Shown here: positions 2,383 to 4,647 of the stretch, one piece after another | Numbering within the stretch: the first letter of the stretch is position 1 | How the letters are laid out: each line of letters opens with the position of its first letter | Assembly: GCF_003334785.1 (NCBI RefSeq) | Contig: NZ_QOWV01000001.1 | DNA length: 64,000 nt | Source of the DNA: Escherichia coli | GTDB taxonomy: Bacteria > Pseudomonadota > Gammaproteobacteria > Enterobacterales > Enterobacteriaceae | Strand: one strand, 5' to 3' | Translations under genes and position numbers: made by a program | The notes under the pieces: model-generated | Databases searched by the model: none | Told to the model about the DNA's origin: nothing | The model's input: the letters and a program-made list of their open reading frames with translations, nothing else

Positions 2383-4647
2383 ATGAAAATAACGACAGTC
2401 GGTGTATGCATAATTAGCGGAATTTTTCCGTTGCTGATTTTGCCCCAATTGCCTGGGACATTAACCCTTGCGTTTCTGACTCTCTTCGCCTGCGTACTGG
2501 CATTTATCCCTGTTAAAACCGTCCGTTATATCGCGCTGACGTTGCTGTTTTTCGTTTGGGGCATATTATCAGCAAAGCAAATTTTGTGGGCAGGAGAAAC
2601 CTTAACTGGCGCGACGCAGGATGCAATTGTTGAGATCACTGCAACTGACGGCATGACCACTCATTACGGTCAAATTACTCATCTACAAGGTCGACGTATA
2701 TTCCCTGCGTCAGGTCTCGTGATGTATGGCGAATATCTTCCGCAAGCGGTTTGTGCTGGACAACAATGGTCAATGAAACTCAAAGTTCGTGCAGTTCATG
2801 GCCAACTTAATGATGGCGGCTTTGATAGCCAGCGTTATGCCATTGCCCAGCATCAGCCGCTCACCGGCCGTTTTCTGCAGGCAAGTGTCATTGAACCGAA
2901 TTGTAGCCTGCGTGCACAGTATCTGGCGTCACTACAAACAACGCTGCAACCCTATCCGTGGAATGCGGTTATTCTTGGTTTAGGTATGGGGGAACGGTTA
3001 TCCGTCCCCAAAGAAATCAAAAATATCATGCGCGATACTGGAACGGCGCATTTAATGGCGATATCGGGATTGCACATCGCTTTTGCGGCGTTGCTGGCTG
3101 CCGGACTCATTCGCAGTGGACAAATTTTTCTGCCTGGGCGCTGGATCCACTGGCAAATACCATTAATTGGCGGAATCTGCTGTGCTGCTTTTTATGCCTG
3201 GTTGACGGGAATGCAACCTCCTGCATTGCGTACCATGGTGGCGCTTGCTACGTGGGGAATGCTTAAGTTAAGTGGGCGACAGTGGAGTGGCTGGGATGTA
3301 TGGATATGTTGTCTGGCGGCAATTTTGCTGATGGATCCTGTTGCCATTCTCTCGCAAAGTTTATGGCTCTCTGCCGCTGCGGTCGCGGCATTGATATTTT
3401 GGTATCAGTGGTTTCCCTGTCCTGAGTGGCAACTGCCGCCGGTATTGCGTGCAGTTGTTTCCCTCATCCATCTGCAACTGGGAATCACACTTCTGCTTAT
3501 GCCCGTGCAAATCGTCATATTTCATGGCATTAGTCTGACCTCGTTTATTGCAAATCTATTAGCAATTCCCTTGGTGACATTTATCACGGTTCCGTTGATC
3601 CTCGCCGCGATGGTTGTGCATTTAAGCGGGCCGTTAATCCTGGAGCAAGGGTTATGGTTTCTTGCCGACCGGTCTTTGGCTTTACTTTTCTGGGGGTTAA
3701 AGAGTTTGCCGGAAGGGTGGATCAACATTGCTGAATGTTGGCAATGGCTATCATTTTCCCCATGGTTCTTACTGGTGGTATGGCGATTAAACGCCTGGCG
3801 AACGTTGCCAGCAATGTGTGTGGCTGGAGGCTTGCTGATGTGCTGGCCGCTGTGGCAAAAACCTCGACCTGACGAGTGGCAGCTGTACATGCTTGATGTC
3901 GGGCAAGGGCTGGCAATGGTGATAGCCAGAAACGGCAAAGCGATTCTCTATGACACAGGACTGGCCTGGCCTGAAGGGGATAGTGGGCAACAACTGATTA
4001 TCCCCTGGCTCCACTGGCATAATCTTGAACCGGAAGGCGTTATTCTGAGCCATGAACATCTGGATCACCGGGGAGGGCTGGATTCAATATTGCATATATG
4101 GCCGATGTTATGGATCAGAAGTCCGTTAAACTGGGAACATCATCAGCCCTGTGTGCGTGGCGAAGCGTGGCAATGGCAAGGATTGCGTTTCAGCGCGCAC
4201 TGGCCTTTACAAGGTAGCAACGATAAAGGAAATAACCATTCCTGTGTGGTTAAGGTTGATGACGGGACGAATAGCATTCTTCTAACCGGTGATATTGAAG
4301 CCCCAGCTGAACAAAAGATGCTAAGCCGTTACTGGCAGCAAGTGCAGGCAACATTGCTTCAGGTACCTCACCATGGCAGTAATACCTCATCATCGTTGCC
4401 ATTAATTCAGCGAGTGAATGGAAAAGTGGCACTCGCATCGGCATCGCGCTATAACGCATGGCGACTGCCCTCTAACAAAGTTAAGCATCGCTATCAACTG
4501 CAAGGATATCAATGGATTGATACTCCACATCAAGGTCAAACAACGGTCAATTTTTCAGCGCAAGGCTGGCGGATTAGCAGCCTCAGGGAGCAAATTTTAC
4601 CTCGTTGGTATCATCAGTGGTTTGGCGTGCCAGTGGATAACGGGTAG
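2383..4647 (+). CDS. ycaI: ComEC/Rec2-family inner-membrane DNA-uptake channel homolog with C-terminal metallo-beta-lactamase domain
   Basis: Long polytopic membrane ORF; C-terminal HEHLDHRGG and PHHGS motifs typical of MBL fold; start placed at ATG 2383 (SD agggagggg) rather than the upstream in-frame ATG at 2305. Confidence 0.85.
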   Translation: MKITTVGVCIISGIFPLLILPQLPGTLTLAFLTLFACVLAFIPVKTVRYIALTLLFFVWGILSAKQILWAGETLTGATQDAIVEITATDGMTTHYGQITHLQGRRIFPASGLVMYGEYLPQAVCAGQQWSMKLKVRAVHGQLNDGGFDSQRYAIAQHQPLTGRFLQASVIEPNCSLRAQYLASLQTTLQPYPWNAVILGLGMGERLSVPKEIKNIMRDTGTAHLMAISGLHIAFAALLAAGLIRSGQIFLPGRWIHWQIPLIGGICCAAFYAWLTGMQPPALRTMVALATWGMLKLSGRQWSGWDVWICCLAAILLMDPVAILSQSLWLSAAAVAALIFWYQWFPCPEWQLPPVLRAVVSLIHLQLGITLLLMPVQIVIFHGISLTSFIANLLAIPLVTFITVPLILAAMVVHLSGPLILEQGLWFLADRSLALLFWGLKSLPEGWINIAECWQWLSFSPWFLLVVWRLNAWRTLPAMCVAGGLLMCWPLWQKPRPDEWQLYMLDVGQGLAMVIARNGKAILYDTGLAWPEGDSGQQLIIPWLHWHNLEPEGVILSHEHLDHRGGLDSILHIWPMLWIRSPLNWEHHQPCVRGEAWQWQGLRFSAHWPLQGSNDKGNNHSCVVKVDDGTNSILLTGDIEAPAEQKMLSRYWQQVQATLLQVPHHGSNTSSSLPLIQRVNGKVALASASRYNAWRLPSNKVKHRYQLQGYQWIDTPHQGQTTVNFSAQGWRISSLREQILPRWYHQWFGVPVDNG

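Follow-up and report, generated by a model that had tools for sequence, protein, structure and literature searches.

The Sxy/CRP-S regulon of the gamma-proteobacteria has been treated in a series of reports, including Cameron & Redfield 2006 (PMC1635313), Sinha et al. 2009 (as cited in PMC6728893 and PMC3330819) and Sondberg et al. 2019. In E. coli, the CRP-S consensus is TGCGA-N6-TTCCA, and CRP-S promoters act in a class I manner (PMC6728893). Expression of sxy induces all of the E. coli competence-gene homologues (Sinha & Redfield 2012, PMC3330819), and Sxy-induced E. coli takes up DNA when recombination is provided by lambda Red (PMC3330819). In H. influenzae and V. cholerae, translation of a competence gene is restricted by a 5' stem-loop of the sxy mRNA, which lies within the long 5' UTR of this mRNA and senses nucleotide pools (PMC2248739, PMC3330819). 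The ComEC/Rec2 channels are exemplified by H. influenzae Rec2 and B. subtilis ComEC, and full-length structures of such channels have been solved (9vc9, 9vcb, 9vcf and 30bt). A further related system is the transposase gene of IS10/Tn10, for which Davis, Simons and Kleckner reportedly described, in 1985, a fold-back inhibition that protects against external promoters.

In the window (the whole 64-kb stretch of E. coli DNA analysed here), the ycaI coding sequence occupies positions 2383-4647 (+) and is intact, encoding a ComEC/Rec2 orthologue of 754 aa. Its start is annotated as the ATG at 2383 (RefSeq 'ycaI: ComEC family protein'; MG1655 b0913), which is preceded by the Shine-Dalgarno sequence GGGAGGGG at 2372-2379. 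The frame is open from 2305 to 4647 in the ORF listing; however, the in-frame ATG at 2305 precedes the transcription start site (TSS) mapped at 2367 (see below), and thus 2383 is the correct start. Every one of the complete E. coli genomes (5426/5426) carries the region, with identities of 95-100%, and in 5425 a single place accounts for 80% or more of the query. The protein has the same three-domain layout as H. influenzae Rec2 and B. subtilis ComEC: an OB/DUF4131 domain (nt 2461-2853, residues 27-157; PF13567, E = 5.6e-5), whose match is weak yet spans model positions 7-152 of 165, a polytopic Competence channel domain (nt 2983-3783, residues 201-467; PF03772, E = 4.1e-53) and a metallo-beta-lactamase (Lactamase_B) domain (nt 3895-4440, residues 505-686; PF00753, E = 3.5e-23), all on the plus strand. 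YcaI also scored well above the cut-offs of TIGR00360 (211 bits, cut-off 36.5) and of the NCBIfam equivalogs PRK11539 (1308.9 bits, cut-off 969) and TIGR00361 ComEC_Rec2 (1129 bits, cut-off 190), and it matched the solved Rec2 structure 9vc9 over residues 105-747 (E = 1.1e-77). The original prediction of a ComEC/Rec2-type channel with an intact C-terminal HEHLDHRGG is borne out by these domains and scores and by the motif itself, which lies at nt 4051-4077 (+; residues 557-565) and contains, as HEHLDH (residues 557-562), the HxHxDH metal-binding motif of the beta-lactamase-like nuclease domain. This canonical motif (SHEHLDHRGG) differs from the SH(G/S)ANAHAGG of the three closest solved Rec2 chains and from the THPDADHIGG found at this place in the 30bt/9ic4 ComEC. 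Taken together, YcaI is the ComEC/Rec2 channel of the E. coli inner membrane, with a complete three-domain architecture and a role in DNA import that is predicted from its sequence. In contrast to the ComEC/Rec2 proteins of naturally competent bacteria, it belongs to a host that shows no laboratory transformation; 'plasmid transformation' on plates, which is an unrelated process, is unaffected by ycaI mutation (PMC6135910).

Sites of the CRP-S type were judged by a 16-bp CRP-type core that in E. coli consists of a C6 (TGCGA) half and a weak TTCCA-type half. A search of 2229-2382, which had been proposed earlier as a check on Sxy control, yielded a phylogenetically conserved site agreeing with TGCGA-N6-TTCCA at 10/10 positions: the predicted site 1 covers 2243-2264 (-), with the core TGCGAGGCAGCTTCCA at 2246-2261. 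Only two exact matches to TGCGA-N6-TTCCA occur in the 64-kb window, and exact matches were found in 18 of 81 related loci, every one at the homologous position and none elsewhere. In addition, the site is present at the homologous position in approximately 70 Enterobacterales ihfB-ycaI spacers; 64 distinct site-1 sequences retain T-G-(G/C)-(A/G)-A N6 T-C-G-C-A, with a shift to TGCGA-N6-(T/G)CGCA in distant genera. The asymmetric 16-bp site conserved among Enterobacterales is thus a feature that ycaI shares with the Sxy/CRP-S regulon of gamma-proteobacteria. Site 1 also resembles the sxy autoregulatory site in its orientation, the conserved TCGCA half facing the promoter in both cases, and in its TGCGAGGC extension, an 8-mer also present in the sxy and ppdD sites, both of which have been studied experimentally. 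As a positive control, the ppdD and hofM promoters were scanned with TGCGA-N6-TTCCA at a threshold of at least 8/10, and no match was returned, indicating that the E. coli consensus is loose and that ycaI site 1 is unusually good; the ppdD spacer holds TGCGAGGCGTTACGAA, which agrees with the palindromic form at 8/10 positions.

A second, CRP-S-like site is predicted at 2296-2317 (+). In E. coli it reads CTGAA-TATGCC-TCGGG (6/10), while it is closer to the consensus in other genera (e.g., TGGAA-N6-TCGTA, 9/10), and several of its columns are conserved (C2311 in 61/67, G2312 in 59/67 and A2314 in 52/67). Another candidate at 2303-2324 (TGCCT-N6-ACGCA, 7/10) was rejected, as it overlaps site 2 in another register, which is not the one conserved elsewhere. 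Relative to the mapped ycaI TSS, the centre of site 2 (2306.5) lies at -60.5, the position of class I sites, and precedes the -35 element by 25.5 bp, as it does at lac; that of site 1 (2253.5) lies at -113.5; these two distances and the -81.5 of the sxy site are in helical phase. The spacing of the ycaI sites may be class I-like, as in the Sxy/CRP-S regulon; however, it is the degenerate E. coli site that lies at -60.5 and the perfect one that lies at -113.5, as opposed to ~-61.5, and the TSS from which these distances are counted comes from uninduced cells. The position of site 1 is unusually far upstream.

The core promoter of ycaI (2332-2360, +) consists of a -35-like CAGACA (2332-2337) and a -10-like CACACT (2355-2360) separated by a 17-bp spacer. 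Across 68 distinct sequences, C2332, G2334, A2335 and CAnACT are near-invariant with fixed spacing, forming the pattern C-GAC-N18-CAnACT, and A2356, C2359 and T2360 are invariant. The promoter was too weak to be called in a consensus promoter scan, and its hexamers match sigma-70 poorly; it is thus probably activator-dependent. Inspection by eye for sigma-54 or sigma-E as the factor recognizing CAnACT found the needed upstream elements to be absent or not conserved. The TSS was predicted from the sequence at A2367 (+), 7 nt past the -10 hexamer, giving a leader of 16 nt. Published Cappable-seq positions, looked up only after this prediction, were converted via NC_000913.3 with a v2-to-v3 offset that we take to be 777 bp, a value that agrees with three independent gene coordinates. 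A start was found at exactly the predicted base (U00096.2 963527, +; NC_000913.3 964304), with a weak score of 2.287 in cells without Sxy induction (PMC4782308 supplement), so that the start used under induction may lie elsewhere. With ~16,500 TSSs across the genome, one would fall within +/-1 nt by chance with a probability of ~0.005. No TSS is listed by Cappable-seq between 2178 and 2367, and a second candidate promoter, 'P1' (TTGAAC 2267-2272 / TAAATT 2290-2295), was discarded, having no TSS and poorly conserved elements.

On its upstream side, ycaI follows ihfB (1891-2175), whose intrinsic terminator (2199-2227, +; a 13-bp stem plus T-run in the terminator scan) is among the most conserved blocks in an alignment of 70 spacer sequences and sets ycaI apart from the highly expressed rpsA-ihfB unit. 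On the downstream side lie msbA (4684-6432) and lpxK (6429-7415). The coordinates give a ycaI-msbA gap of exactly 36 bp (4648-4683), in agreement with the earlier description of ycaI as wedged between ihfB and the msbA-lpxK pair with about 36 bp to spare. A sigma-70 consensus scan of 1750-4800 returned the msbA promoter as its only hit, and this promoter is embedded in the 3' end of ycaI (4622-4657, +), with a -35 element TTGGCG at 4622-4627, a -10 element TAGAAT at 4645-4650, within which the ycaI stop codon TAG (4645-4647) sits, and a TSS at 4657. The promoter sequence hardly varies over the loci compared (82/82), and its start was recorded by Cappable-seq at U00096.2 965817 (+) with a score of 146.8, i.e., ~64-fold stronger than the ycaI start (2.29). 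The wedged layout is accounted for by this strong promoter of msbA overlapping the end of ycaI. As a practical consequence, any deletion or insertion made in ycaI has to leave untouched the final 26 bp of the gene (4622 onward) together with the 36-bp spacer behind it, because the promoter of the essential msbA-lpxK pair would otherwise be hit.

From these sequence comparisons, ycaI is quite probably a maintained and functional gene of the Sxy/CRP-S (competence/DNA-uptake) regulon rather than a relic. During ordinary growth, Sxy would be scarce, cAMP-CRP would stay off the low-affinity sites and ycaI would be nearly silent. Once Sxy accumulates, Sxy-CRP would bind at -113.5, and perhaps at -60.5, and, acting as at class I promoters, would bring RNA polymerase to the poor CAGACA/CACACT promoter. 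Transcription from there would give an mRNA with a 16-nt leader and a free Shine-Dalgarno sequence; ComEC would be made alongside the homologues of the pilus/secretin, ComEA and DprA, whose genes lie elsewhere, and would pass single-stranded DNA into the cytoplasm, while the promoter of msbA-lpxK would insulate these essential genes from the Sxy switch. We infer the Sxy dependence of ycaI itself from the general statement in PMC3330819 about all competence-gene homologues. Since these observations fit the Sxy/CRP-S regulon as described from 2006 to 2012, the finding is already known; it is correct but ordinary, textbook-level biology, and confirmation of the ycaI site fundamentally adds nothing. 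It restates a known puzzle, namely that E. coli retains a complete, selected and Sxy-inducible DNA-uptake set that is not known to be induced under any natural condition. What is gained is a precise map of two CRP-S-type sites, core promoter, start, leader hairpin and embedded msbA promoter.

An alternative is that ycaI heads a ycaI-msbA-lpxK-ycaQ operon and is expressed constitutively at a low level, independently of Sxy, with a role in the envelope or in the use of DNA as a nutrient. Such an operon is annotated in databases and several papers, and hence some co-transcription, in a minor fraction, may occur; the weak start at 2367 is also detectable without Sxy induction. However, the downstream genes were not found to depend on the ycaI promoter: the ~64-fold stronger msbA start lies downstream of nearly all of ycaI, so the essential genes need no ycaI transcription. 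Growth on DNA as a nutrient, according to work cited in PMC3330819, does need the competence-gene homologues, but nutritional DNA uptake is compatible with Sxy control and offers no alternative to it. As the conserved CRP-S sites would also be left without a role, we regard constitutive expression from the head of an operon as unlikely.

Far less probable, and already disfavoured, is the possibility that ycaI is a decaying relic kept for the msbA-lpxK promoter in its 3' end, with the CRP-S match arising by chance. It would accommodate the lack of laboratory transformation in E. coli, the very weak start-site signal, the near-invariance of the last ycaI codons, which form the msbA promoter, and two rare disruptions (strain HS30-1 has an IS1 insertion, and in strain 90-3040 the match extends over only 59% of the query). 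However, the dN/dS of ycaI within Escherichia is 0.08-0.095 over all 754 codons (compared with 0.015-0.05 for msbA and 0.05-0.065 for lpxK), which indicates purifying selection and argues that ycaI is no relic; constraint from the msbA promoter would shield only ~40 bp. Six translated orthologues from Escherichia, Citrobacter and Salmonella are all full-length ORFs with 0 stop codons, and full-length matches occur across the Enterobacterales. The catalytic motifs have likewise been retained over 80 Enterobacterales YcaI orthologues, PHHGS in 80/80 and the HxHxDH pattern in every variant listed, which together account for 77 of the 80. Finally, a 10/10 site would be expected by chance in ~150 bp with a probability of ~3e-4, and the CRP-S site occurs at the same position in different genera. 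The original reading of ycaI and sxy as intact genes of a cryptic competence system is supported, and it survives the refutation test that had been set for it.

In addition to Sxy/CRP-S control, the region around the ycaI start has the potential to form an RNA hairpin at 2352-2383 (+; UGCAC-A-CUUUCC / GGAGGG-GUGCA), in which the -10/discriminator region is paired with the Shine-Dalgarno sequence (2372-2379) and with the first base of the AUG. A transcript has to begin before position 2352 to form this pairing; the mapped TSS at 2367 falls in the loop. The predicted fold has an energy of -14.4 kcal/mol (z = -4.4) in E. coli and a median of -13.5 kcal/mol among 68 orthologous sequences, with at least 75% of the Shine-Dalgarno sequence paired in 85% of them, while the RNA from the TSS onward is nearly unstructured (median -2.2 in the orthologous sequences). 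With respect to the starts of 38 control ORFs from the window (median -5.6), ycaI is an outlier. The hairpin is predicted in most of the 68 sequences, which come from dozens of genera, despite sequence change, with paired changes in the two arms in Kosakonia (CACAC/GUGUG to CAUAC/GUAUG) and Intestinirhabdus (CUUCC/GGGAG to CUCUC/GAGAG), and with CAUCCU/AGGAUG in Mixta. RNAalifold gave no consensus structure on the alignment, since the register of the pairing differs from lineage to lineage; therefore, per-sequence folding and arm-swap tests were used instead. In the latter, native arm pairs reached -12.0 kcal/mol as against -10.2 for chimeric ones, and 0/5000 permutations reached the observed value in a test that takes no account of phylogenetic relatedness. 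A search of Rfam for the ycaI leader and the ihfB 3' region found no family, with sub-threshold chance hits only.

These folds raise the possibility, as an addition to Sxy/CRP-S control, that read-through mRNA buries the Shine-Dalgarno sequence and AUG and goes untranslated while mRNA starting at 2367 is translated. The stability of the predicted hairpin, its persistence despite changes in the arms, the advantage of native over chimeric arms and the open own-start RNA would all be consistent with such an arrangement. Against it stand, besides the missing RNAalifold consensus and the relatedness ignored in the permutations, the ready pairing of pyrimidine-rich discriminators with purine-rich Shine-Dalgarno sequences, both arms being otherwise constrained, and the reported effectiveness of the ihfB terminator in Salmonella (PMC8942017), which perhaps leaves little read-through to silence. 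We consider fold-back insulation a plausible idea that falls somewhat short of an even chance. Slightly more tentative is the specific proposal that the -10/discriminator region doubles as the anti-Shine-Dalgarno arm, so that rpsA-ihfB transcripts would be translationally dead and only mRNA from the Sxy/CRP start would yield ComEC. The use of a -10 region as an anti-Shine-Dalgarno arm silencing ihfB read-through may be a new detail. As in IS10/Tn10, the anti-Shine-Dalgarno would closely precede the start that belongs to the gene itself, and an occluding hairpin would be open only to externally initiated transcripts; the two differ in context, a transposon as opposed to a chromosomal housekeeping setting, and in the overlap of the ycaI anti-Shine-Dalgarno arm with the -10 hexamer. 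The predicted ycaI hairpin would also restrict translation of a competence gene, as does the sxy stem-loop of H. influenzae and V. cholerae, but the 16-nt leader of ycaI itself lacks it. If true, ycaI would be a conserved chromosomal case of IS10-style fold-back insulation, which may account for the strict silence of a DNA channel of the membrane beside one of the cell's busiest transcription units and would offer a neat, general design for silencing genes downstream of strong operons.

The sxy (tfoX) gene at 59234-59863 (+), which the original prediction had also listed as intact, does encode a complete CRP co-activator of 209 aa with TfoX_N (PF04993, E = 2.7e-25) and TfoX_C (PF04994, E = 6.7e-27) domains (RefSeq product name 'transcriptional coactivator for CRP'). 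Its promoter carries a CRP-S site at 59087-59108 (-), with half-sites TGCGA and TTCCG as in PMC6728893. The presence of ycaI and sxy in the same 64 kb, to which attention had been drawn, holds as a co-occurrence; however, the two genes are 54.6 kb apart, with dozens of unrelated ORFs between them, and their nearness of ~55 kb is coincidental, without any indication of functional linkage. With the local offset applied, the Cappable-seq TSSs of sxy fall at 59179 and 59225, and the centre of its CRP-S site (59097.5) lies at -81.5 from the main one, 59179. Between 4.6 and 57 kb, the window is longer than MG1655 by 33 bp.

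As the original prediction had it, the window carries an intact ComEC/Rec2 homologue, ycaI, together with sxy (tfoX), the gene for its CRP co-activator. The finding is correct, and all of its content is already established: the CRP-S (Sxy-dependent CRP site) promoters of E. coli competence-gene homologues have been predicted and tested, with rec2 among the orthologues (Cameron & Redfield 2006, PMC1635313); all of these homologues are reported to be induced by sxy expression, and Sxy-induced cells take up DNA when given lambda Red (Sinha & Redfield 2012, PMC3330819); and the RefSeq product name for ycaI is 'ComEC family protein'. 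The present analysis adds a precise map of the ycaI promoter, accounts for the layout of the ycaI-msbA junction and describes one conserved, predicted feature of the leader that may be new.

The 4,001 bases around ycaI are colinear with K-12 MG1655 (2 mismatches, no indels), and the gene order at the near end is rpsA (58-1731), ihfB (1891-2175), ycaI (2383-4647), msbA (4684-6432), lpxK (6429-7415) and ycaQ; the far end carries sulA (minus strand), sxy (59234-59863) and yccS. The two competence genes do occur together, but dozens of unrelated ORFs fill the 54.6 kb between them, and there is no reason to attach any meaning to this distance. Relative to MG1655, the window has 33 additional bp at some point in the stretch from 4.6 kb to 57 kb: its offset to NC_000913.3 falls from 961937 at ycaI to 961904 at sxy, so the local offset matters when published coordinates are converted. 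The mechanical ORF of ycaI opens at ATG 2305 and the annotated start is ATG 2383; as the latter is preceded by a strong Shine-Dalgarno (SD) sequence, GGGAGGGG, at 2372-2379 and by a mapped transcription start, the predicted coordinates 2383-4647 are right, and the gap before msbA is indeed 36 bp.

Both proteins appear complete, as predicted. In YcaI (754 aa), residues 27-157 belong to DUF4131, 201-467 to the Competence domain and 505-686 to Lactamase_B, with HEHLDHRGG at residues 557-565 (nt 4051-4077). The protein clears the curated cut-offs for the NCBIfam ComEC equivalogs by a wide margin, and its match to solved full-length structures of Rec2/ComEC reaches E = 1e-77; in Sxy, both the TfoX_N and TfoX_C domains are present. 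YcaI and its Enterobacterales orthologues retain the canonical HxHxDH (SHEHLDHRGG, residues 555-565, window 4045-4077), whereas the three closest solved Rec2 chains (PDB 9vc9, 9vcb and 9vcf) have SH(G/S)ANAHAGG at this place and the ComEC of 30bt/9ic4 has THPDADHIGG, which suggests a more complete metal site in enterobacterial YcaI than in some solved Rec2 proteins.

As quoted by Sondberg et al. 2019 (PMC6728893), Sinha et al. 2009 gave the CRP-S motif of E. coli as T4G5C6G7A8-N6-T15T16C17C18A19, and Sxy dependence needs a conserved half and a weak half in either orientation (Sondberg et al. 2019, PMC6728893). A 10/10 match to this consensus, predicted site 1 (TGCGAGGCAGCTTCCA, core 2246-2261, minus strand), lies in the ihfB-ycaI spacer, and a 70-sequence alignment of this spacer shows it among a small number of conserved blocks. 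Exact TGCGA-N6-TTCCA matches were also found in 18 of 81 related loci (~600 kb in all), one per locus and all 18 at the homologous position, ~120-140 bp before the ycaI orthologue. Site 1 reads TGGAA-N6-TCGCA in Escherichia, Citrobacter and Salmonella, and takes the more palindromic form TGCGA-N6-(T/G)CGCA in Atlantibacter, Buttiauxella, Cedecea and others. Thus, a CRP-S-like site conserved across genera is present upstream of ycaI, as expected of a Sxy-regulated gene. An extended half-site, TGCGAGGC, which goes three bases past the usual 5-bp core, is common to the CRP-S sites of ycaI (2254-2261), sxy (59098-59105) and ppdD (upstream region in MG1655). The weak half of site 1, together with the preceding 6 bp, forms a tandem CTGGAA-CTGGAA (2239-2250), so that an alternative register is possible for this half. 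The only other exact match in the window, TGCGAATCACTTTCCA at 45120-45135 (plus strand), is probably due to chance, since it falls within an ORF on the minus strand (44587-45654) and the next gene on the plus strand is ~800 bp further on. A second predicted CRP-S-like site of the same form, site 2 (core 2299-2314), is conserved 53 bp downstream of site 1 and scores 8-9/10 in Salmonella and Buttiauxella compared with 6/10 in E. coli.

Downstream of site 2, positions 2332-2337 of the spacer alignment hold a near-invariant C-GAC(A), followed after a 17-bp spacer of fixed length by CAnACT at 2355-2360, with invariant columns A2356, C2359 and T2360; these elements would make a poor sigma-70 promoter whose -10 hexamer shows the typical A2/T6 signature. 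A start at 2367 was predicted from them, and the Cappable-seq list was looked up afterwards. The offset between the MG1655 versions (U00096.2 and NC_000913.3), which we take to be 777 bp, agrees with the coordinates of ihfB, msbA and ompA; with it and NC_000913.3 coordinates, U00096.2 963527 converts to window 2367, base A. A plus-strand start is listed at exactly this position, with a score of 2.287 (Ettwiller et al. 2016, PMC4782308 supplement), and the list has no further entry between 2178 and 2367. Measured from this start, the centre of site 2 falls at -60.5, which is 25.5 bp before the -35 element, the same distance as for the CRP site at lac; the centre of site 1 falls at -113.5, and both sites are in helical phase with the sxy site (-81.5). 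Other plus-strand Cappable-seq starts lie at 2576 (score 4.57), ~190 nt into the coding sequence of ycaI, at 2178 (score 19.8), which is 3 nt past the ihfB stop with the ihfB terminator ~50 nt further on, and within ihfB at 2064 (score 57.7). The last two could be the source of short 3'-end-derived RNAs, for which no matching family was found in Rfam.

The start at 2367 falls in the loop of a predicted hairpin (RNA 2352-2383, UGCAC-A-CUUUCC / GGAGGG-GUGCA, -14.4 kcal/mol, z = -4.4) that covers the SD and the A of AUG. Messages begun at this start therefore have no anti-SD arm and are predicted to be almost unstructured (median -2.2 kcal/mol), while any transcript from upstream carries the arm. 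Fold-back inhibition in IS10 works in this way, through an anti-SD arm that only externally started transcripts contain, and folding predicts such an arrangement here. A like hairpin is predicted across 68 distinct orthologous sequences (median -13.5 kcal/mol; SD at least 75% paired in 85%), and pairing is kept despite changes on both arms in Kosakonia (CAUAC/GUAUG), Intestinirhabdus (CUCUCUG/CAGAGAG), Mixta (CAUCCU/AGGAUG) and Winslowiella iniecta (UCCUUG/CAAGGA). The start regions of 38 control ORFs from the window had a median of -5.6 kcal/mol; only two were as stable as that of ycaI, both of them doubtful starts as neither has a recognisable SD. Native arm pairs were 1.8 kcal/mol more stable than pairs swapped between species, a value matched by 0 of 5000 permutations, a result inflated by sequence relatedness. 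Nevertheless, RNAalifold returned no consensus structure on the spacer alignment, both arms are constrained for other reasons, and in Salmonella the terminator of ihfB reportedly works well (PMC8942017); IS10-like insulation of ycaI is thus a tentative reading that we hold to be somewhat doubtful. Rfam has no family at the leader, and nothing on it was found among the papers searched that name ycaI.

At the other end of ycaI, TTGGCG-17-TAGAAT (4622-4650) is the sole consensus-grade sigma-70 promoter within 1750-4800, and the ycaI stop codon TAG lies inside its -10 element. The Cappable-seq start at 965817 corresponds to window 4657 (score 146.8; PMC4782308 supplement), with a signal ~64 times that of the ycaI start. 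The segment CAGTGGTTTGGCGT-N12-GGTAGAAT-N-GCGGCTATTTCA is nearly invariant in all 82 Enterobacterales loci, which accounts for the conserved ...HQWFGV C-terminus of YcaI. Taken together, the consensus promoter, strong start and invariance indicate that the essential msbA-lpxK pair has a strong promoter of its own (4622-4657) within the last codons of ycaI, and the database operon 'ycaI-msbA-lpxK-ycaQ' is at most a minor transcript.

That ycaI is a relic kept just for this 3' promoter is made very unlikely by its low dN/dS, stop-free orthologues and kept motifs. Within Escherichia, its dN/dS is 0.08-0.095, a constraint a little looser than that on msbA (0.015-0.05) and close to that on lpxK (0.05-0.065). 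Our scan (one genome per species) found 80 Enterobacterales orthologues with 43-95% identity; stop codons were absent from all six translated, the HxHxDH pattern held in every variant listed (77 of 80), the GD motif was found in all and PHHGS in 80/80. ihfB lies upstream of the orthologue in 73 of 82 sequences examined. None of the 5,426 complete E. coli genomes lacks the ycaI region, and disruptions are rare: in strain HS30-1 (NZ_CP029492.1) the ihfB-ycaI-msbA stretch contains an IS1 element, and the best match in strain 90-3040 (NZ_CP027459.1) covers just 59% of the query.

For sxy, transcription was reported to start at 59119, a G that precedes the ATG by 115 bp (Sinha & Redfield 2012, PMC3330819). 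Cappable-seq disagrees, placing one start at 59179 (score 58.6) and another at 59225 (score 3.4); converted with the local offset, the main start, 59179, puts the centre of the sxy CRP-S site at -81.5. Within the sulA-sxy spacer, ~40 bp from this site, TACTGTATGGATGTACAGTA at 59039-59058 resembles the LexA box of sulA, which we take to be CTGT-N8-ACAG.
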